DNA of 64,000 nucleotides from Alphaproteobacteria bacterium (GTDB lineage: Bacteria; Pseudomonadota; Alphaproteobacteria; MPNO01): contig CBDBCV010000012.1 of assembly GCA_965203455.1 (NCBI GenBank), positions 175,911-239,910 on the forward strand. Direction: 5' to 3'. Made by a program: the position numbers and the translations under genes. Below the pieces are notes generated by a model. The model was not told where the DNA came from, ran no database searches, and worked only from the letters and a program-made list of their open reading frames with translations. Shown in pieces: positions 4,033-63,972 of this stretch; position 1 is the stretch's first letter; the number at the start of each line of letters is the position of its first letter.

Positions 4033-6380
4033 CAGGCGTCTCCCCCGCCCGCGCGCGCCGCGACCCGGCGGTCGGTCTCCTGCTTCTCCAGGAGCGCCAT
4101 CAGCCGGTCCGGCGTCAGCGGCAGCTCGGTCGCGCGGACCCCGACGGCGTCGGCCACCGCGCTCGCCAGCGCCGGCAGGAAGTTGGCGAGCGAGGTCTCG
4201 CCCGCCTCCTTGGCGCCGAACGGGCCGTGGGGATCGGCGCTCTCGACGATATGGGTCTCGATGGGGGGCGACTCGACGATGGTCGGCACGCGATAATCCA
4301 GCATGTTGCCGGTGATGCCGAGCCCGTCATGGTAGCGGGTCTCCTCCGACAGCGCCTGGCCCATCCCCATCCAGACCGAGCCCTCGATCTGGCCCTCGAC
4401 CGAGAGCGGGTTGAGCGCCTTGCCGCAATCGTGCGCGACCCAGACCTTGTCGACCCTGATCTCGCAGGTCTCGGGGTCGACCTCGACCTCGCAGACCAGC
4501 GCCGAATAGGCGAACGCCATGGTGCCGCCGATCGCCGCACCCCGGTATTTCCGCCCGCCCCAGGATTCCGGGATGGTGTCGAAGGTGCCCTTGACGGCGA
4601 GCGTCCCGGTGCCTTCGAGGGCGGCCATCACGACTTCCTTCCAGCTCAGCCCCTCGTCCTGGGTGCCGGCGCGGTAGACGTCGCCCAGGCACTCGACGTC
4701 CTCGGGCCGAACCTCCAGCTTCCGCGCCGCCGCCTCGATCAGCAGCGCCTTCAGGTTGTTCGCCGCGTCGATGGCGGCGTTGCCCACCATGTAGGTGACG
4801 CGCGACGAATACGACCCGTTGTCCTTGGGCGTCAGCGCGCTGTCCGACGCGACGACGTTGATCCGCGAGATATCGATCCCGAGGACCTCTGCGACGCATT
4901 GCGCGAGCACCGTCGATGAGCCCTGGCCGATCTCGGCGGCGCCGGTCAGCAGCGTCACCGAGGCGTCCCAGTCGACCCGGAGGTGGATCGTCGCGTGCGG
5001 CTCGCCGGTCCAGTGCTTGGGCTTCGACGCGCCCGAGATGTAGTGCGAGCACGCCATGCCGAGCCCGCGGTTCGGGCCGAGCCTGCCCTTGCGCGCCTTC
5101 CAGCCGGACGCCTCCTCGACGATGTCGAGGCATTCGGGCAGCCCGTAGGAGTTCACCATCAGATCGTTGGCGGTGAAGCCCGGCGCGGTCATCAGGTTGG
5201 CGCGGCGGACCACGAACGGATCGAGGCCGAGCTCGTCCGCCATCGCGTCCATCAGGCTCTCGAAGGCGAAGCGGATATTGACCGTGCCGTGGCCCCGGAA
5301 CGCGCCCGGCGGCGGCATGTTGGTCAGCACCCGGAAGCCCTTGTACTTGACGTTCTCCAGATCGTAGATCGCGAACAGCATCGAGCCGTTGTAGAGGATG
5401 GTGACGATGCCGTAGCCCGAATAGCCGCCGGCGCGGTGCACCGACTCGCACTCGACGGCGGTGATCCTGCCTTCCCGGGTCATGCCGATCTTCAGCTTGA
5501 CCGCGGTCTCCTGGCGTCCGCGGTGGGTGATGAAGGTCTCCTCCCGGCTCAGCACCAGGCGGACCGTGCCGCGCGCCTTGCGGGCCAAGAGCGCCGCGAC
5601 CAGCTCGACGTGCAGCGCCTCGGTGCGGCAGCCGAACCCGCCGCCGACATGGGGCTTGATCACGCGGATGTCGGACTGCTCCATGCCGAGCGTGCGCGCC
5701 AGCATCAGGTGGACGTAGTAGGGCACCTGGGTCGAGGCGCGGACGGTCATCCTGCCGCGGCCCGAATCGTATTCGGCCTGGGCGGCGTGGGGCTCGCTCT
5801 GGACCTGGCAGACCTCGCCCAGCTGGTAGATGTCCTCGCGCACCAGGTCGGCGGCGGCGAAGCCCGCCCCGGTGTCGCCAATCTCGAAGTCGACCTCGCG
5901 CTCGATATTGCCCGGCCGTTCCTCGTGGAGCTGGACCGCGTCGTCGGCCCGCGCCTCCTCGGCGGTGAAGTAGGCCGGCAATTCCTCGTACGCGACCTCG
6001 ATCAGGTCGAGCGCGCGTTGCGCCGTCGCGGTGTCCTCGGCGGCGACCGCCGCCACCGCCTCGCCGCGGTAGCGCACCCGGTCGCGGGCGAGCGCGTACT
6101 CGTTCATCGCGATGGGGAGGACGCCGAACGTGTCGGCGCAGTCCGCGCCGGTGACCACGGCATGCACGCCCGGCAGCGCCTCCGCCTTCGAGGTGTCGAT
6201 GCCGACGATCCGCGCATGCGCCACCGGGCTCCGCAGGATCCGCCCGGTCAGCTCCTCCTGCGCGATGAAGTCGGCGGTGTAGAGCGCCTTGCCCGAAACC
6301 TTCTCGGGCCCGTCGACCAGCGGCATCGGCACGCCGATCGACTGTACCGGCGCCGGCGCGGCTCCCGTCGCGTCGCTCAT
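4032..6380 (-). CDS. hcrA: 4-hydroxybenzoyl-CoA reductase alpha subunit (molybdopterin)
   Basis: Xanthine oxidase family: [43 protein letters not shown]; ATG at 6380 overlaps hcrC stop. Confidence 0.9.
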
Positions 6381-6862
6381 GCCGCTTCCTCCCGGCCCGC
6401 GATCTCGTCGGCGGCGGCGCGCACCGCCTCGATGATCTTGATGTAGCCCGTGCAGCGGCAGATGTTGGCCGCCATCCCGTCGCGGATCGCGCCCTCGTCC
6501 GGGTCCGGCTCGGCGCGCAGCAGCCCCTCCGCCGCCATGATCATGCCCGGCGTGCAGAACCCGCACTGGGCGCCGAGTTTCACGTGAAACCCCCGCTGGA
6601 TCGCCGACAGCCGCCCCGAGGTTTCCAGCGACTCGATCGTCTCGACCCGCGCATCCTGGCAGGAGTTCGCGAGCGTCAGGCAGGAATGGCGCGGCCGGTC
6701 GTCGACCAGCACCGTGCAGGCGCCGCACTCGCCGCCGTCGCAGCCGATCTTGGTGCCGGTCAGCCCCGCGACCTCGCGCAGATAGTCCACCAGCAGCATG
6801 TTGTCGGCGACCACGTCGTCGCGCCGCCGCCCGTTGAGCGTCAGGGACAGTACGGTCTTCAT
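6377..6862 (-). CDS. hcrC: 4-hydroxybenzoyl-CoA reductase gamma subunit (2x[2Fe-2S])
   Basis: [28 protein letters not shown]. Confidence 0.9.
6576..6591. promoter_or_regulatory. parS-like site inside hcrC
   Basis: aGTTTCACGTGAAACc, perfect 14-bp core. Confidence 0.7.
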
Positions 6863-6907
6863 GCCTCCCCCTTTGCCGGTCGTGGCATTAATGTGACCAC
6901 AGCAATA

Positions 6908-6931
6908 ATTGACTTGAACAACAATGTCAAT
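6908..6931. promoter_or_regulatory. Candidate operator in divergent promoter region
   Basis: ATTGAC-N12-GTCAAT inverted repeat in AT-rich gap between hcrC and GIY-YIG/MarR. Confidence 0.5.
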
Positions 6932-6941
6932 GTAGATTCGG

Positions 6942-7049
6942 GTCCTTCGATACGCCCGCCCGAGGCGGGCTGCTCAGGATGAGGGGAAAGGAAGGCCCTC
7001 ATCCCGAGTAGGCGCGCCAGCGCCGTATCGAGGGACCGTATCGAGGGAC
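6942..7049. repeat. REP-like doublet family A upstream of GIY-YIG, with 13-bp terminal duplication
   Basis: GTCCTTCGATACG...CTCAGGATGAGG / CCTCATCCCGAGTAG...CGTATCGAGGGAC, then CGTATCGAGGGAC repeated. Confidence 0.9.
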
Positions 7050-7053
7050 GCCG

Positions 7054-7890
7054 TTGGAACCCGTATTCGTCTACATCCTGCGCTGCGCCGACGGGAGCTT
7101 CTATTGCGGCACCACCCGCAAGTCTCCGGAGGCCCGCGTCCACGAGCACAACGGCGGCGCGCTCGCGGGTTACACCGCGACCCGGCGGCCGGTCGAACTG
7201 GTCTGGCACGAGACGTTTCAGCGGGTCGAGGATGCCATCGCCATGGAACGGCGGATCAAGGGCTGGTCGCGGCGCAAGAAGATCGCGCTGATCGAAGGCG
7301 ACTGGGACGGGTTGACGAGGGCGGCGCGGAAGCGGTCCTTCGATACGCCCCCTGCGGGGGCTACTCAGGATGAGGGGAGAGGAAGGCCCTCATCCCGAGT
7401 AGGCGCGGAGCGCCGTATCGAGGGACCGGCCGAGGGCAACCCGCCCAGCCTCGGCATCCTGCCCGGCCTGCTGGGCTATCAGCTGCGCCATGCCAACCTG
7501 AAGGTGGTGGGCGGGTTCGCGGAGCGGATCGCGCCGCACAACGTCACCGCGGCGCAGTTCGGCCTGCTGGTCCTGGTCGCCGCCAACCCGGGCGCGACCC
7601 AGGCGGCGCTCGCCCGCGCCTTCGGGACCGACCGCTCGGTGATGGTGCGGCTGATCGACCGGCTGGAGGCCGCCGGGCTGGTCGACCGGCGCGCGCGGGA
7701 GGGCGACCGGCGGTCCAACGCGATCGTGCTCACCGAACGCGGCGCGGCGCTGCTGGAGACGCTGAAGCGCGAGGTCCGCGCCTTCGAGGACCGGGTGACG
7801 GCCTGCCTCACCGCCGGGGAGACCGGGACCCTGCTCGCCCTCCTGCGGCGCATCAACGCCGCGGCCGACGGGCGGGAGAAGCGGGAATGA
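7054..7890 (+). CDS. GIY-YIG (UPF0213-like) nuclease fused through a repeat-encoded linker to a MarR regulator
   Basis: aa 1-94 FVYILRCADGSFYCG..R..EH..E..IKGWSRRKK; C-terminal LLGYQLR..RLIDRLEAAGLV.R..DRRS..LTERG winged helix; TTG start. Confidence 0.8.
   Translation: MEPVFVYILRCADGSFYCGTTRKSPEARVHEHNGGALAGYTATRRPVELVWHETFQRVEDAIAMERRIKGWSRRKKIALIEGDWDGLTRAARKRSFDTPPAGATQDEGRGRPSSRVGAERRIEGPAEGNPPSLGILPGLLGYQLRHANLKVVGGFAERIAPHNVTAAQFGLLVLVAANPGATQAALARAFGTDRSVMVRLIDRLEAAGLVDRRAREGDRRSNAIVLTERGAALLETLKREVRAFEDRVTACLTAGETGTLLALLRRINAAADGREKRE
7335..7426. repeat. REP-like doublet family A downstream of GIY-YIG domain
   Basis: Near-direct repeat of 6942-7036 with different internal stem-loops. 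Confidence 0.9.
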
Positions 7891-8007: not shown

Positions 8008-9005
8008 TTACCCTTGTTGACGTGTGAGGCCCGGGATTTTCGGGTCGAAGTTCCAGGGCATGAGTTCGTCGATGCGTGACAGGGGGTGCATGTCGATGAT
8101 CCGGCGCAGGGTGTCGGTCAGGTAGACCTGCGGATTGACGCCGTTGAGCTTGCAGGTGCCGATCAGGCTGGCGCACCGCGCCCAGGTCCTGGCGCCGTCG
8201 TCGCTGCCGGCGAACAGCGCGTTTTTCTTTGTGAGCTTCACCGGACGGATGAGGTTCTCGACAGGGTTGGTGTCCATCTCGATACGTCCGTCATGGAGGA
8301 ACCGGCACAGGCCATCCCAGCGCTTGAGGGCGTAGCGGATGTGCCTGGCGAGTTCGGACGCGCTGGACAGACGGTCGAGCCGGGCCTCGAGCCAGGGCCG
8401 CATGGCCTCGACGATCGGCGCCGACAACTCCTGCCGCGCCTTCAGCCGCAGCTCTGGCGGGTGACCGCGCACCATGGTCTCGATCCGGTAGAGCGCCGCG
8501 ATCCGTGCGAGGATTTCCTCGCACAGGGGCGACTCCGTGGCGCGCTGGAAGTCGACGAAGCGTCTCCGCCAGTGGGTCCAGCAGTAGGCGAGCACCCATG
8601 GGCTGACCGTCTGCTTCGGATCGCCGAGCGCATCGTACACCCTGTAGCCGTCCACATGCAGCGGGCCGCCGCCGGTGTAGCCCCGCATCAACTCCAGAGC
8701 GACCTTCGCACTTCGATGGCGCGAGTGGTGGAACACCACGATCGGCGGGTCGACCCCGCCATAGCCGCGCTGATCGCGGGCGATCGCCCACAGATAGTCG
8801 AGGCGCGTCTTGCCGGTCCCCGGCGCCATCACCGGCACCGTGGTCTCGTCCATGAACAGACCGTCCGACGCCTTGAGGTGCTCGATCATCCGGTCGATCA
8901 CCGGGGCCAGCACCTGCATCCCGCGCCCCGCCCAGTTCCCCAGCATGGTGCGGTCGAGGTCGATCCCCTCGCGCCGGTATGCCTCGCTCTGACGGTAGAA
9001 CGGTT
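8008..9005 (-). CDS. tnpC: IS66 transposase TnpC, 3' exon (variant A)
   Basis: PFYRQSE..MDET..YCWTHWRR..DTNPVENLIRP..KKNALFAGS. Confidence 0.85.
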
Positions 9006-10866
9006 AGCGAGTCGCGCGGGGGAATCTCACCCCCACGCGCTCCCAGAACCGTACGTGAACCTCTCAGCTCATACGGCTCCCAGCGTCCGGCCCTGCCCGT
9101 GCACAAGGGTCCAATGGGCGAACCGCCACGGCTCCGCTTTCGCGATTCTGGCAAGCCAGAGACGAGCCTGACGCGGTCGTTGTCGGAAGCGTTTGAACTT
9201 CCGCATTGCCCATCGCTGCAAGTGGGCGTCTATCAGACGAAGGGTCGGATAGAGCGCCGACTTGTAGAATGCGCCGAAGTAGCCGATCCACCCTGCAATT
9301 TCGCGATGAAACATGCGGGCAAGGTCAAGCAGTGCCTTGTCGCTACGCCGTTGCAAACGCCACTGTCGCACGCGGCGCCGAAACGCCTTGAGCGCAGTCG
9401 GGCTGGCAGCCGGAAGGAACGAGACCCCGAACAACCCGCCGCGCCACGCCGCGAACCTTGGCTGGAAACGGTAGCCCAGGAAGTCGAACGCGACCGTCGG
9501 GTAGTCCGCCTTGCGGTTGGTATCCTTGCAGTAGACCACCTTGGTCTTCTGCGGATGGACCTCCAGGCCGCACTCGGCCAATCGGTCCGCAACCCGCCGC
9601 CAGAGGGTCTTTGCCGCCTCCTCCGTTCGACAATGGCAGATTATATCGTCCGCATACCGTTCGAACGGAACATGCGGCATCGACCTTTTCATCCATTGAT
9701 CGAACGCATAGTGCAGGAACAGGTTGGACAATACTGGCGAAATTACCCCGCCCTGTGGCGTGCCCCTGTCCCGTGCGACAACGGTGCCGTCCTCCTCGAT
9801 CACGGGAGCCTTCAACCAGCGCTCGACATAGAGCAGCACCCACCGGCAGTCCGTATGGTGACGAACGGCCTTCAGCAGCAACTCGTGGTCGATGTTGTCG
9901 AAGAACCCCTTGATGTCCATGTCCAGCACCCAGTCGTAGCGCCAGCATCGCCGACGCGCTGTCCGGATGGCGTCAATGGCGGATCGCTTCGGCCGATATC
10001 CGTATGAGTCCTCATGGAAAATCGGTTCCAACAAGGGCTCCAGATGTCGGCGAACAACCTCCTGAGCGATGCGGTCCGTGACCGTCGGTATGCCCAACGG
10101 GCGCTTCCCGCCGCCCTCCTTGGGGATGTTCACCCTGCGAACCGGAGGCGGCATATAGCTGCCTGAGGACATGCGATTCCAGAGCTTGTAGAGTTCCGGA
10201 CCAAGCCGTTCCTCCAGACTCTCGACCGTCTGCCCATCTACTCCAGCCGCTCCCCGGTTTGCCTTCACATGCTTGAAGGCTTCCCAGACTTCCCTCTTTG
10301 CTATCGGGAACGGCTTTGCCCCTGTCATCCGGCTCCTCCTGTCACCAGTTGGCCGACGGCAGCGGCTGAACACCACAGCCCCTTCGGTCCAGCGCCATTA
10401 CAGCGCCTTCATCCCTACTACGGGCTGTTCTGCCCCTGTGCCCCGCATCGGTACTCTGAGCCTTCCGGGGGCTGCCCGGTTGGCCGTCTCCCTTGGCATC
10501 GGGACGACAGGTTCTCCTGTTCCGCAAGAAAGCCTGTTCCGGGTTCACGCCGCCTTCGAGCCGGATGCCGCGTGGGCCGGACTCCAGGACTCCGCCCATG
10601 CTTGTCCCGGAGTGACCACCACCCCCGGTTCTGACATCGACCATACGCTTTCGGCAGTTCATCGGCGGTTCGCTTTCGCTCGTCTCCCCGGACCTCACCT
10701 GACGAGATCGTCGTCCCGCCGTTTCCACGACGCTCACCACCATCGCTCTTTACGACAGCAGCTCGTGGTGGTTTGAGACCGACGCCTGATCGTCGACCCC
10801 GAGGGGCCTACCCTCATCTCTCTTGCAGTTGCGCACCTCCTTTCATGGCGGTGCTTCAGGACACAC
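9006..10866 (-). mobile_element. Complete group II intron, class D (RmInt1-like)
   Basis: 5' GTGTG at 10866; domain V/VI GAGCCGTATGAG..GGTTCACGTACGGTTC..GGGGTGAGATTCCCC at 3' end; removal restores tnpC frame. Confidence 0.9.
9069..10328 (-). CDS. ltrA: Group II intron reverse transcriptase/maturase without endonuclease domain
   Basis: 419 aa; RPLGIPTVTDR, GTPQGGVISP, RYADD, FDFLGY. Confidence 0.95.
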   Translation of the reverse strand: MTGAKPFPIAKREVWEAFKHVKANRGAAGVDGQTVESLEERLGPELYKLWNRMSSGSYMPPPVRRVNIPKEGGGKRPLGIPTVTDRIAQEVVRRHLEPLLEPIFHEDSYGYRPKRSAIDAIRTARRRCWRYDWVLDMDIKGFFDNIDHELLLKAVRHHTDCRWVLLYVERWLKAPVIEEDGTVVARDRGTPQGGVISPVLSNLFLHYAFDQWMKRSMPHVPFERYADDIICHCRTEEAAKTLWRRVADRLAECGLEVHPQKTKVVYCKDTNRKADYPTVAFDFLGYRFQPRFAAWRGGLFGVSFLPAASPTALKAFRRRVRQWRLQRRSDKALLDLARMFHREIAGWIGYFGAFYKSALYPTLRLIDAHLQRWAMRKFKRFRQRPRQARLWLARIAKAEPWRFAHWTLVHGQGRTLGAV

Positions 10867-17877: not shown

Positions 17878-20820
17878 AAGCATGGGCGGAGTCCTGGAGT
17901 CCGGCCCACGCGGCATCCGGCTCGAAGGCGGCGTGAACCCGGAACAGGCTTTCTTGCGGAACAGGAGAACCTGTCGTCCCGATGCCAAGGGAGACGGCCA
18001 ACCGGGCAGCCCCCGGAAGGCTCAGAGTACCGATGCGGGGCACAGGGGCAGAACAGCCCGTAGTAGGGATGAAGGCGCTGTAATGGCGCTGGACCGAAGG
18101 GGCTGTGGTGTTCAGCCGCTGCCGTCGGCCAACTGGTGACAGGAGGAGCCGGATGACAGGGGCAAAGCCGTTCCCGATAGCAAAGAGGGAAGTCTGGGAA
18201 GCCTTCAAGCATGTGAAGGCAAACCGGGGAGCGGCTGGAGTAGATGGGCAGACGGTCGAGAGTCTGGAGGAACGGCTTGGTCCGGAACTCTACAAGCTCT
18301 GGAATCGCATGTCCTCAGGCAGCTATATGCCGCCTCCGGTTCGCAGGGTGAACATCCCCAAGGAGGGCGGCGGGAAGCGCCCGTTGGGCATACCGACGGT
18401 CACGGACCGCATCGCTCAGGAGGTTGTTCGCCGACATCTGGAGCCCTTGTTGGAACCGATTTTCCATGAGGACTCATACGGATATCGGCCGAAGCGATCC
18501 GCCATTGACGCCATCCGGACAGCGCGTCGGCGATGCTGGCGCTACGACTGGGTGCTGGACATGGACATCAAGGGGTTCTTCGACAACATCGACCACGAGT
18601 TGCTGCTGAAGGCCGTTCGTCACCATACGGACTGCCGGTGGGTGCTGCTCTATGTCGAGCGCTGGTTGAAGGCTCCCGTGATCGAGGAGGACGGCACCGT
18701 TGTCGCACGGGACAGGGGCACGCCACAGGGCGGGGTAATTTCGCCAGTATTGTCCAACCTGTTCCTGCACTATGCGTTCGATCAATGGATGAAAAGGTCG
18801 ATGCCGCATGTTCCGTTCGAACGGTATGCGGACGATATAATCTGTCTGAGGTGGCGTCGGTTTGTCGGACAGGCTGACGGCGTTTTCAAGGTGTATTCCG
18901 GTTGAAGTTTGTGCCGCCAGAATCCTCTTGGATCGATCTTTCTGCTGCTGCTGTTGCGCCTGTGGGTATGTGGTCAAGGCGCGAAGCGGCTTGTCCATCA
19001 TATCCACAGGCGTGTCGCCCCGGTAGGCCTCGGCCGGCGTCCGCCCGCCGAGTGCCGAGTGCGGTCTCTCGGTGTTGTAGAAGCCGATCCACTGGCCGAT
19101 GACGCGCCGGGCTGCGAAGCCGTCGGCGATCTCGTGCAGGTAGACCGCCTCGTATTTGAGCGAGCGCCACAGCCGCTCGATGAAGATGTTGTCCATGCAC
19201 CGGCCGCGGCCGTCCATCGAGATGCGGATACCGGCCTCCCGCAGGCGCGCGGTGAAGGCGAAGCCGGTGAACTGGCTGCCCTGGTCGGTGTTGAAGATCT
19301 GCGGGGTGCCATGGCGCGCCAGGGCTTCGTCGAGAGCCTCGACACAGAACCCCGCGTCCAGCGTGTTCGACAGCCGCCAGGCCAGGACGCAGCGGCTCGC
19401 CCAGTCCATGATCGCCACCAGGTAGAGGAAGCCGCGCCGCACCGGGATGTAGGTGATGTCGGCGCACCACACATGGTTCGGCCGCTCGATCGCCAGACCC
19501 CGCAGCAGATATGGATAAACCCGGTGCCCGAGGTGCGGCGCACTGGTCCGCGGCGCCCGATAGACCGCCTGAAGACCAAGCAGGCGCATCAGGCGAGCGG
19601 CCCGCCGCCGCCCGATCCGCACCCCCTCGCGGCGCAGATGCCGAACCATCTGGCGGGCGCCGTAGAACGGATACTTGAGGAACAGCGCGTCGATCCGGCG
19701 CATCAGAGCCAGCGTCTCCGCGCTCTCCCCCTTCGGCCGGTCATAGAGCGACGAGCGCCCGATCGACAGCAGACGGCATTGCCGGGTCAGGCTCAACGAC
19801 GGGTGGCCCCGCACAACCATCGCCCGTCTCCCGGACCGGCTCAGCGACCGGACCCGCGTGACAAAAAATCACGCTCTACGATCAACTCCCCGATCTTGGC
19901 GTGAAGAGCCCGGACCTCGCTCTCGTGATCCCGCGCCCGGCGCTCACCTCCACCGGAAAAGACCTCCCCCAGACCCTCCATCGCCTGGCGCTTCCACACA
20001 CCCACCTGGTTCGGATGCACCTGGTGCTTCGAGGCAATCTCCTGAAGCGTCCGATCACCCCGTAGCGCCTCCAAGGCTATCTTCGCCTTCAGCTCCCCCG
20101 AAAACCTGCGTCGCTTGCTCATCCGCATTCCTCCGTCACACGGCAGAATACACCTTGACGACATGTCCGATTTTGCGACGCCACCTCAGCCATTGTCGAA
20201 CGGAGGAGGCGGCAAAGACCCTCTGGCGGCGGGTTGCGGACCGATTGGCCGAGTGCGGCCTGGAGGTCCATCCGCAGAAGACCAAGGTGGTCTACTGCAA
20301 GGATACCAACCGCAAGGCGGACTACCCGACGGTCGCGTTCGACTTCCTGGGCTACCGTTTCCAGCCAAGGTTCGCGGCGTGGCGCGGCGGGTTGTTCGGG
20401 GTCTCGTTCCTTCCGGCTGCCAGCCCGACTGCGCTCAAGGCGTTTCGGCGCCGCGTGCGACAGTGGCGTTTGCAACGGCGTAGCGACAAGGCACTGCTTG
20501 ACCTTGCCCGCATGTTTCATCGCGAAATTGCAGGGTGGATCGGCTACTTCGGCGCATTCTACAAGTCGGCGCTCTATCCGACCCTTCGTCTGATAGACGC
20601 CCACTTGCAGCGATGGGCAATGCGGAAGTTCAAACGCTTCCGACAACGACCGCGTCAGGCTCGTCTCTGGCTTGCCAGAATCGCGAAAGCGGAGCCGTGG
20701 CGGTTCGCCCATTGGACCCTTGTGCACGGGCAGGGCCGGACGCTGGGAGCCGTATGAGCTGAGAGGTTCACGTACGGTTCTGGGAGCGCGTGGGGGTGAG
20801 ATTCCCCCGCGCGACTCGCT
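17878..20820 (+). mobile_element. Second group II intron copy, 5'-truncated and RT disrupted by IS3
   Basis: Matches copy 1 but lacks about 260 nt of 5' end; RT 18153-20757 broken just after YADD. Confidence 0.9.
18847..20188 (-). mobile_element. IS3-family element copy 1
   Basis: TGAGGTGGCGTC...GACGCCACCTCA ends; orfA HTH and orfB with WCADITY, NTDQGSQF, IERLWRSLKYE. Confidence 0.95.
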
Positions 20821-30469: not shown

Positions 30470-30608
30470 TTGCCGTCTCCCGATGTCGTTTCCATGCCGA
30501 CTCCGAGTATCCCCTCGGCAAATGTCTAGCGGCAAATGCCTACTTGTCGCCGGAAACGAAACGCGGCATAAGGGGGCGCCATTTCAACAACGGAAAGGAG
30601 GTGATCCA

Positions 30609-30680
30609 GTGTCTCATTGTCGCCAACCGCGGACGCGGGTGAACTGGGTCTCCGCCTCTCGGGGGTCCTGGGTCGCCTAG
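30609..30680 (+). CDS. Candidate 23-aa small ORF (or sRNA) with extreme Shine-Dalgarno
   Basis: GAAAGGAGGTGATCCA-GTG; upstream TTGTCG-N17-CATAAG promoter-like; downstream hairpin. Confidence 0.5.
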   Translation: MSHCRQPRTRVNWVSASRGSWVA

Positions 30681-30721
30681 AGCGACGCTCGCGGCCACAC
30701 TCCGGCCGCGGTTAGACAATG

Positions 30722-30752
30722 GAAGGGCCGTCCTCCGGGGCGGCCCTTCTTC
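30722..30752 (+). terminator. Probable intrinsic terminator
   Basis: GAAGGGCCGTCC-TCCG-GGGCGGCCCTTC-TTC; weak U-tract. Confidence 0.55.
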
Positions 30753-51779: not shown

Positions 51780-51873
51780 GCCCTTCGATACGCGCCCTTC
51801 AGGCGCTACTCAGGGTGAGGGTTTCTTTCTCCATCCTCATCCCGAGTAGGCCCGAAGGGCCGTATCGAGGGAC
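51780..51873. repeat. REP-like doublet family A
   Basis: CCTTCGATACG..CTACTCAGGGTGAGG / CCTCATCCCGAGTAG..CGTATCGAGGG. Confidence 0.9.
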
Positions 51874-51879
51874 GCGCCC

Positions 51880-63875: not shown

Positions 63876-63972
63876 GTCCCTCGATACGGCGCTTGCGCGC
63901 CTACTCGGGATGAGGGCTCCCTTTCGGATCTCCCCTCACCCTGAGTAGCCGCGAAGCGGCGTATCGAAGGGC
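63876..63972. repeat. REP-like doublet family A
   Basis: Same unit pair as 2122-2213. Confidence 0.9.

Follow-up and report, generated by a model that had tools for sequence, protein, structure and literature searches.

A stand-alone GIY-YIG nuclease gene between palindromic doublets in an alphaproteobacterium, a putative sister variant of the Ssn system

Anatomy of the locus

The window analysed here, a stretch of 64,000 nucleotides from an alphaproteobacterium (GenBank assembly GCA_965203455.1, contig CBDBCV010000012.1), contains a small gene encoding a GIY-YIG nuclease that is set between two palindromic doublets in direct repeat. The window corresponds to C12:175911-239910 of genome G000, which comprises 6.24 Mb in 17 contigs and is 100% complete by marker genes; positions given without a contig are those of the window, and the genomes compared are designated by G numbers. 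The locus lies between a divergent [2Fe-2S] subunit gene (CoxS; 6377-6862, minus strand; Fer2_2/Fer2) and a MarR-family gene. The open reading frame (ORF) of the nuclease spans 94 codons (7054-7335, plus strand), starts with TTG, and was assigned to a UPF0213/Slx1-like group, here called clade A, from PF01541 and from a comparison of the clade profile with PDB structures. The PF01541 domain covers residues 5-76 (Pfam, E = 1.3e-14) within the 94-codon conserved core, so that the ~94-residue single-domain GIY-YIG feature is present. All 22 aligned homologs, which come from both clades described below, share the residues Y7, Y17, G19, R28, H32 and E65, and purifying selection on the clade-A gene is indicated by dN/dS values of 0.25-0.43 among four orthologs of the genus.

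The left doublet (6941-7051) consists of a (-) unit at 6941-6985, a 10-nt spacer and a (+) unit at 6996-7038, after which part of the unit end is duplicated over 13 nt (7039-7051), including a GAGGGA Shine-Dalgarno-like stretch ahead of the TTG at 7054. The right doublet (7334-7428) is composed of a (-) unit at 7335-7376, a spacer and a (+) unit at 7387-7426. The two align directly over 98 nt with 91.8% identity (E = 4e-28). As single-stranded DNA (ssDNA), each was predicted to fold as a four-way junction, in which an outer stem encloses three hairpins, with energies of -37.2 kcal/mol on the left and -34.9 kcal/mol on the right (z-scores of -7.2 and -6.1); 0 of 200 shuffled sequences folded as well. 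Repeat units within 120 bp on both sides were found for a fraction of only 1e-5 of 200,000 random 282-bp windows of G000. The first-pass annotation of this DNA had described a 94-residue GIY-YIG protein with intact motif residues bracketed tightly by two directly repeated doublets, and both the coordinates and the anatomy proved right.

The ORF that starts at 7054 has no stop codon of its own. It continues in frame through the right doublet, which is translated as a 31-codon linker, into a MarR winged-helix domain (7429-7890, plus strand; Pfam MarR_2, E = 6.3e-16) and ends at 7890 after 278 codons. This in-frame domain is the neighbouring host regulator and stands outside the GIY-YIG family. 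The ancestral ATG of MarR, kept in G004 and G010, is gone at the window locus, and translation of MarR may therefore begin internally or yield a nuclease fusion. The stop-less, in-frame arrangement of GIY-YIG and MarR was observed in three species, the window species, G011 (locus L002) and G006 (locus L003), with 278, 316 and 280 codons, respectively; the linkers derive from the repeats and are of unequal length, and the reading frame through the last repeat unit is not the same in all. The protein library contained a fourth GIY-YIG-MarR fusion (P0001, 273 residues). Gene calls for clade-A members (P0003, P0028 and P0042) were likewise often observed to extend into repeat-encoded peptides such as PFVLSLSKD and LRQAQDERG, and also into neighbouring genes, the neighbour being JAMM/MPN-like twice. 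Many family members appear longer than the ~94-residue core because of such overruns.

The REP-A repeat family

The flanking doublets belong to a dispersed family, here termed REP-A by analogy with repetitive extragenic palindromes (REPs), in which each doublet is an inverted pair of a ~41-nt unit, CCCTCATCCCGAGTAGGCGCG..CGCCGTATCGAGGGAC. A search of G000 with a unit profile (nhmmer) detected 265 units. Nearly all adjacent pairs (96 of 99) are (-,+) doublets, with spacers of 4-32 nt, mostly 10-27 nt. The inner stem is perfectly Watson-Crick paired in 266 of 286 REP-A units despite occurring in nine different sequences, for example GGCGC/GCGCC (114), GCGGC/GCCGC (56), GCCGC/GCGGC (50) and GGCCC/GGGCC (20), which indicates that it is the structure, not the sequence, that is maintained. 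REP-A corresponds to the canonical clade-A element described in the next section with a GC hairpin inserted in its loop (CCGAG-TAGGCGCG..CGCCGTA-TCGAGG), and the same elaborated doublets surround a 69%-identical ortholog in a genome of another family (G118). The canonical motif CTGAGCYTGTCGAAGG itself was found in ten copies in G000, although the clade-A gene of this genome has elaborated REP-A flanks.

Within the window, the unit profile located gene-free REP-A doublets at 2122-2215 (end approximate), 51780-51874 and 63876-63970. A 16-nt REP-A fragment is situated at 961-976, beside a TGTC-type hairpin and the right end, at ~1034, of the small element in REP-B loops that is described below. 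The nuclease-free copies listed in the first-pass annotation were thus confirmed for the three doublets and the fragment, whereas the last of them, at ~56894, represents a single copy of the canonical motif, CCTTCGACAAGCTCAGG, which is related to REP-A, and not a fragment of a REP-A doublet.

Rfam returned nothing but a chance microRNA match for 6800-7500 at E<=1, and no family reached the gathering score for the hairpins of the window or of three canonical loci. The longest direct repeats in the flanks of 96 REP-A doublets and of 116 doublets of the second family, REP-B, were no different from those of shuffled pairs, which gives no sign of a long target duplication; this comparison covered the longest direct repeats, duplications of 2-4 bp lying outside it.

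Pairing of gene and hairpin across bacteria

Homologs of the window protein at E<=1e-5 were found in 20 of 41 genomes (G000 and 40 relatives), and 28 of 30 such loci have a repeat common to both 300-bp flanks (E<=1e-5), the sequence of which varies by genome. A scan of genome contigs with the single window protein yielded 75 loci at 43-87% identity. The nearest is from a Defluviicoccus metagenome-assembled genome (MAG), and others are titled Bosea, Methylocystis, Methylobacterium, Sphingomonas, Betaproteobacteria and Dehalococcoidia; overall, the record titles of clade-A loci span Alphaproteobacteria, Betaproteobacteria/Burkholderiales, Dehalococcoidia/Chloroflexota, a Bacteroidia MAG and a cyanobacterium. 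Among the 72 of these 75 loci with enough flanking sequence, 52 carry a flank-shared repeat (at least 20 nt, E<=1e-5), compared with 2 of 298 control windows from the same loci. An enrichment of repeats around homologs, anticipated in the first-pass annotation, was therefore borne out.

The element common to the flanks is CCGTTCGNCCT-GAGCYTGTCGA-AGGNC, of the canonical hairpin type GAGCTTGTCGA. From the loci, 139 distinct hairpin units were extracted by the 11-nt loop pattern GAGCYTGTCGA, the loop being therefore fixed by the extraction. The adjoining 5-bp stem covaries: 87.3% of its cells are paired, compared with 68.7% after shuffling, and 128 cells are changed on both sides, compared with 30; 0 of 500 shuffles reached the observed values. 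The loci amount to 684 kb and contain 150 canonical units, of which 108 are no more than 250 bp from the gene. In the canonical layout, 20-60 bp separate the end of an upstream (+) unit from the gene, and a (-) unit begins no more than ~10 bp downstream of it. Where doublets without a gene occur in canonical clade-A loci, they are likewise (+)(-).

The type of hairpin follows the protein. When loci were typed with profile hidden Markov models, the 84 clade-A loci were found to have GAG...TCGA hairpins in 66 cases, CGTC-like hairpins in 6 and none in 12, whereas the 30 loci of the other group, clade B, have CGTC hairpins in 22 cases, none in 8 and the GAG...TCGA type in 0. Mapped onto the protein tree, the flank class shows 5 changes, compared with 22-27 in the ten listed of 200 shuffles. 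The expected tracking of the protein by its repeat is thus seen in these loci. Copies of the canonical motif in five genomes from three lineages numbered 49, 79, 5, 19 and 27, with 0 for a reversed-pattern control. The clade-A profile matched 26,444 of 1.84 billion representative proteins at E<=1e-3, 8,445 at E<=1e-10 and 152 at E<=1e-30. The association of gene and hairpin is specific, matched to the clade and spread across phyla, and the structure of the hairpin is conserved.

Clade B and its repeat in the same genome

PF01541 matches in G000 are confined to four places: the window gene, which is the single clade-A copy, UvrC, and two copies of a small clade-B GIY-YIG gene. The intact clade-B gene (C11:267936-268160) lies between (+) and (-) units of REP-B, a palindrome of the form CGTC-ATGCCCGGA-CTTGT-TCCGGGCAT-CCA. 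G000 contains 314 REP-B units and 116 (+,-) doublets, with spacers of 30-45 nt, nearly all 41-45 nt. The clade-B gene stands where a REP-B doublet would have its 42-nt spacer, the spacing in this case being 316 nt, and the consensus of the doublet resembles the ends of the clade-B cassette. The published SRM pattern of the Ssn system, introduced below, matches 224 of the 314 REP-B units and 367 sites in G000, compared with 25 in the reversed genome. On this sequence match, clade B with REP-B is identified as the published Ssn system.

In the second clade-B copy (C17:528736-528999, minus strand), the first catalytic tyrosine is replaced (TFLIVTN instead of WVYIVTN), and the upstream REP-B unit has been lost, leaving the downstream unit only; this copy is probably decaying. 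An element of ~250-330 bp with the ends CCACTGCTGTCCGGTTTAA...TTAACCGGACAGCAGTGG was also observed inside the loops of REP-B hairpins (G000 C2:65377-65675, ~30 other places, and ~1034 in the window). It apparently duplicates GGACTTGTTCC and carries its own TGTC-type hairpin doublet; 30 left ends and 24 right ends were counted, with 11 pairs within 2 kb.

Co-occurrence and comparison among relatives

In a sample of 301 genomes of the class, clade-A genes were separated from other matches by a gap in score (at least 106.8 bits, compared with at most 77.6 bits for the rest) and were found in 27 genomes. Of the genomes with at least five copies of CTGAGCYTGTCGAAGG, 13 of 27 have the gene, as do 5 of 23 with one to four copies and 9 of 251 with none. 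These tallies take in the unpublished genomes G085 and G284, neither of which has clade A; without both, the first two become 13 of 26 and 5 of 22. As the related genomes in this sample are not independent of one another, the tallies are given as plain counts. Inspection of six of the nine genomes that have clade A but not the motif showed variant hairpins missed by the pattern in three and no hairpins in the other three.

Within the genus, REP-A pattern counts are 130, 85, 58 and 42 in four genomes with the gene, and 60, 52, 46, 45, 41, 4, 3 and 0 in eight without it. No RAYT, the HUH tyrosine transposase associated with REPs (PF01797; IS200-type Y1), was found in G000 or the 11 other genus genomes searched, in agreement with the non-RAYT setting originally suggested.

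The CoxS-MarR site itself presents a series of states, of the kind that the first-pass annotation had proposed to look for in related strains. It is empty in G004, where MarR has its own ATG; it holds a doublet and one further unit without the gene in G005; and it holds repeats, gene and repeats in G000, G006 and G011. In G010, a clade-B gene lies there between REP-B-like units, and the ATG of MarR is kept. The clade-A gene of G008, 72% identical, is at another locus, again between doublets, and ends at its own stop after 97 codons. A 15-kb syntenic block includes four further doublet sites of G000; one or two relatives have nothing at them, and others have other repeat families there, which indicates that such sites are reused. 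Alignment of filled and empty sites gave no clean junctions from which exact insertion boundaries could be read, the intergenic DNA being too diverged.

Two side observations concern such sites. Orthologous intergenic sites (G000 C3:17000-27000, syntenic with L136-L139) hold REP-A, two CGTC/TGTC types, a GGGGAGAGG-type palindrome, or nothing, and a duplicated stretch of ~30 bp, common to three species with different inserts, borders one REP-B site.

Evidence from sequencing runs was taken from assembled contigs, among which no join across the gene indicative of excision was found. One contig from the best-matching run joins 7038 to 7335 with 16 other letters and is most simply another (+)(-) repeat locus. 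The contigs break at repeats, the gene being on a 355-bp contig. A contig from an RNA library of a relative covers 7024-7306, for which carry-over of DNA is possible.

Relation to Ssn and other known systems

The idea of a GIY-YIG partner for REP-like repeats holds in that the association is specific, but it had already been published for a sister family, Ssn. According to the available text of that report (Chenal et al., 2025, Nat Commun 16:2388, PMC11893778), ssnA encodes a 94-residue GIY-YIG protein (CDD cd10448) and is flanked by NTS/SRM hairpins (CGTCATTCCCGCGMAVGCGGGAATCYRG), at least one of which is nearby in 71% of homologs and on both sides in 42%; a homolog is present in 81% of genomes with more than 200 SRM. 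Purified Ssn proteins from four species bound the hairpin as ssDNA only and in one orientation, and cut upstream of it, and SsnA lowers transformation of N. meningitidis by NTS-bearing DNA (PMC11893778). The Discussion of the same report calls the NTS-ssnA-NTS layout similar to an insertion sequence (IS) and draws a parallel with RAYT and REP; a transposase is not shown in the available text (PMC11893778). The SRM pattern is given there as HGTCWY...RNCYNB, and the cut-off for Ssn homology as E<1e-10 over >75% of the length (PMC11893778). A literature search pairing GIY-YIG with REP or MITE terms found nothing; Chenal et al. (2025) surfaced in a looser search, and was the only result of one combining SsnA and GIY-YIG.

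Clade A resembles Ssn, as described in the available text, in its ~94-residue protein with the same catalytic positions (Y7, Y17 and E65 here; Y6, Y17 and E64 in SsnA), in a hairpin repeat that borders the gene on both sides and has tens to hundreds of dispersed copies, in the joint variation of protein and repeat, and in a unit resembling an IS. It differs in several respects. The clade-A gene is 37-38% identical to Ssn-like proteins: with the protein of L014, a proxy for SsnA that has exact NTS consensus flanks, 37% identity over 79 residues was obtained (pairwise E = 2e-14, genome-wide E = 2.9e-9), and a profile-profile comparison with Ssn-like proteins gave a probability of 99.7% and 38% identity. 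Genome-wide searches between the clades gave E values of 3e-11 to 5e-6, mostly above the 1e-10 cut-off of Chenal et al.; this range leaves out seven A-like matches of 43-87% identity. UPF0213 structures were scored 78 bits by the clade-A profile and 44 bits by the clade-B profile. The clade-A hairpin is of the GAG...TCGA type and has no CGTC tag, and the SRM pattern matched 0 of 265 REP-A units and nothing in the window between 6000 and 8500. Each side of the gene here is a ~95-bp doublet that is predicted to fold as a four-way junction. Since SRM flanks, the defining repeat feature of Ssn, are lacking, the clade-A gene is filed, on sequence grounds, as a sister variant of Ssn nearer to UPF0213 and not as a member of Ssn.

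As a minimal stand-alone GIY-YIG domain, the clade-A protein is also similar to the UPF0213/Slx1-like group. Its profile matches the UPF0213 structures 1ZG2 (E = 3.7e-21) and 1YWL (E = 1.6e-17) as well as SLX1 (E = 4.9e-4). Clade-A-like proteins presumably carry cd10456 in NCBI records. The UPF0213/Slx1-like proteins are treated as vertically inherited repair proteins by Dunin-Horkawicz et al. (2006, PMC1564403); unlike the present case, palindromes are not mentioned in the available text of that paper, where 'palindrom' occurs 0 times. No match for the clade-A protein was found in NCBIfam, PADLOC or PHROGs, and for clade B a sub-threshold NCBIfam match was obtained (17.6 bits, compared with a cut-off of 56).

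The arrangement shares with REP/REPIN-RAYT systems short imperfect palindromes that are intergenic and mostly in inverted doublets, a low-copy gene flanked by the repeats, a match between repeat family and gene subfamily, and a patchy distribution among relatives. It differs in that PF01797 was not found in the 12 genus genomes and in its enzyme, a hydrolytic GIY-YIG nuclease, to which the covalent cut-and-rejoin chemistry of HUH enzymes therefore cannot apply. The CGTC-tagged REP superfamily is mostly alphaproteobacterial and, in the available text of its description, without a dedicated transposase (Di Nocera et al., 2013, BMC Genomics 14:522, PMC3733652). REP-B resembles it in its CGTC tag, 9-bp stem starting with AT, 5-nt loop and CCA tail (PMC3733652), whereas REP-A has no CGTC tag; REP-A contains GAGTAG and may correspond to one of the GTAG families of Di Nocera et al. 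With the GIY-YIG homing endonucleases (I-TevI, Seg), clade A has in common the catalytic domain, a free-standing intergenic gene and possible self-spread; it differs in comprising the catalytic domain only, unaccompanied by a separate DNA-binding domain, and in lying outside introns and inteins.

Other features of the window

Ahead of the entire cassette, the promoter region between the divergent CoxS and MarR genes contains an inverted repeat, TTGAC-N12-GTCAA, at 6909-6930. This repeat is also kept at the orthologous site in G004, G005, G006 and G011, and is a putative MarR operator. Elsewhere in the window, an IS66-family transposase fragment and group II intron RNA domains were observed (8008-8946, minus strand; 9006-10815, minus strand; 20745-20820, plus strand), the intron domains being assigned by Rfam to RF00029 at 9006-9081 and 20745-20820 and to RF01999 at 10697-10815. 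A match to the Caulobacter sRNA family CC2171 (RF01867) is situated at 30585-30747 on the plus strand (87.4 bits, compared with a gathering score of 75).

Proposed mode of action and alternative explanations

The clade-A GIY-YIG gene and its flanking REP-A repeats probably form a hairpin-gene-hairpin unit, the protein of which would bind its cognate ssDNA hairpin and nick beside it. The ORF would encode a single-domain nuclease of ~94 residues from the UPF0213/Slx1-like clade, sister of Ssn, and the hundreds of gene-free REP-A units and doublets would be the same recognition element as the gene flanks. By analogy with SsnA, the protein would most likely bind the hairpin when the DNA is single-stranded, as in replication, transformation, conjugation or repair, and then nick next to it. 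Binding and cleavage of REP-A ssDNA are what we infer from this analogy. The consequence for the genome may be ssDNA restriction or control of recombination, as in Neisseria, or a spread of the repeats. If clade A cuts 5' of the hairpin as SsnA does, the inner (+)-gene-(-) unit would have a cut on either side, one per strand, and in gene-free (-)(+) doublets the cuts are predicted to fall in the spacers.

Several observations weigh against this reading. The clade-A ORF starts with TTG and lacks its own stop. As the SRM pattern matches no REP-A unit, the analogy with Ssn rests on the 37-38% identity. A flank-shared repeat is missing from 20 of the 72 homologous loci, and the loci were sampled by similarity to the window protein and from relatives, such related genomes not being independent. 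Of the 27 motif-rich class genomes, 14 have no clade-A gene, including G070 (4 contigs, 98% completeness), which speaks against a strict dependence between nuclease and repeat. The proposal of the first-pass annotation that the nuclease spreads the repeats is not supported as it was put: five genus genomes, G001, G002, G003, G005 and G007, have 60, 41, 46, 45 and 52 matches to the REP-A pattern, respectively, and no clade-A ortholog was found in them. The assemblies of G001 (1 contig), G003 (2) and G005 (6) are at or close to completeness; G002 and G007 are drafts with at least 200 contigs, and because contigs break at repeats, a ~355-bp contig with the gene could be missing from such drafts.

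That the small gene simply lies, unrelated, in a CoxS-MarR intergenic region that is a hot spot for repeats is scarcely credible. It is true that in G005 this site has repeats but no gene, that in G010 another repeat family accompanies a clade-B gene there, and that other sites also collect different families, but the chance rate of 1e-5, the excess of flank-shared repeats over control windows, and the agreement of hairpin type with protein clade all speak against coincidence. A larger role for the enzyme, as an autonomous mobiliser whose gene-free doublets are non-autonomous derivatives arising by nuclease-initiated copying, in the manner of a REPIN/RAYT analogue or a minimal IS, is possible, although we regard it as doubtful. 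Consistent with it are the generality of the architecture of inverted repeat, gene and inverted repeat, the gene-free (+)(-) doublets in canonical loci, the clade-B gene in place of the REP-B spacer with a doublet consensus like the cassette ends, and the position of the cassette, which is syntenic in G000, G006 and G011 but elsewhere, between doublets, in G008. The presence or absence of doublets at orthologous sites among species, the failure to find RAYT in 12 of 12 genus genomes and the enrichment of the gene in motif-rich genomes point the same way, and an IS-like hypothesis was raised for Ssn itself in the available text (PMC11893778). On the other side, SsnA cuts one strand orientation only, upstream of the hairpin (PMC11893778), which would give one cut per element on one strand and not excision. 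The persistence of repeats without the gene and the lack of a long target duplication at the 96 REP-A and 116 REP-B doublets also argue against mobilisation, and different families at the same sites fit permissive or targeted sites equally well as transposition. We know of no strand-transfer activity among GIY-YIG enzymes, which hydrolyse DNA.

It seems unlikely that only the gene cassette is selfish, homing into pre-existing doublets as its cleavage targets while the repeats are spread or maintained otherwise. The order in the window, (-)(+) gene (-)(+), is what would be expected from a (+) gene (-) unit inserted in a (-)(+) spacer, into which the two-strand cuts would fall if clade A cuts 5' of the hairpin; repeats persist where the gene is absent; and with the clade-A profile as many as 12 matches at E<=1e-6 were obtained in a single genome (G203; both GIY-YIG clades, G003 not being among them). 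However, the flanking doublets are complete and 92% alike including the spacer, which looks like a duplicated doublet and not a split target, a single gene copy is present in G000 despite 96 potential target doublets, and no other mobiliser is in view. The proposed unit of nuclease and cognate hairpin can also be extended into a broader speculation, which we think rather improbable. Small stand-alone GIY-YIG nucleases (Ssn and the UPF0213-like sister clade, each with its own hairpin) would be the missing partners of the RAYT-less REP superfamilies, the ~360-bp hairpin-gene-hairpin units would be the smallest autonomous mobile elements known, and gene-less doublets would be spread by nuclease-initiated repair of ssDNA. 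If this were true, it would represent a mechanism of mobility without transposase chemistry.

Implications

What does the locus add to the Ssn system? The general concept of a GIY-YIG enzyme partnered with a hairpin repeat is already published for Ssn (Chenal et al., 2025, PMC11893778). New here are 1) a second GIY-YIG clade with a different conserved hairpin, 2) the elaboration of that hairpin into a four-way junction in this genus, and 3) a natural series of empty, repeat-only and full sites. Whereas Chenal et al. (2025) described one GIY-YIG family with one hairpin class, the window locus extends the principle to a second, separable clade. This widens the set of candidate site-specific ssDNA nucleases with new specificities, and supplies a partner enzyme for repeat families previously without one. 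One orthologous site that is empty, repeat-only, full or occupied by the sister system, together with several genomes of the genus that keep the repeats without the gene, provides natural material for asking whether such nucleases spread their repeats.

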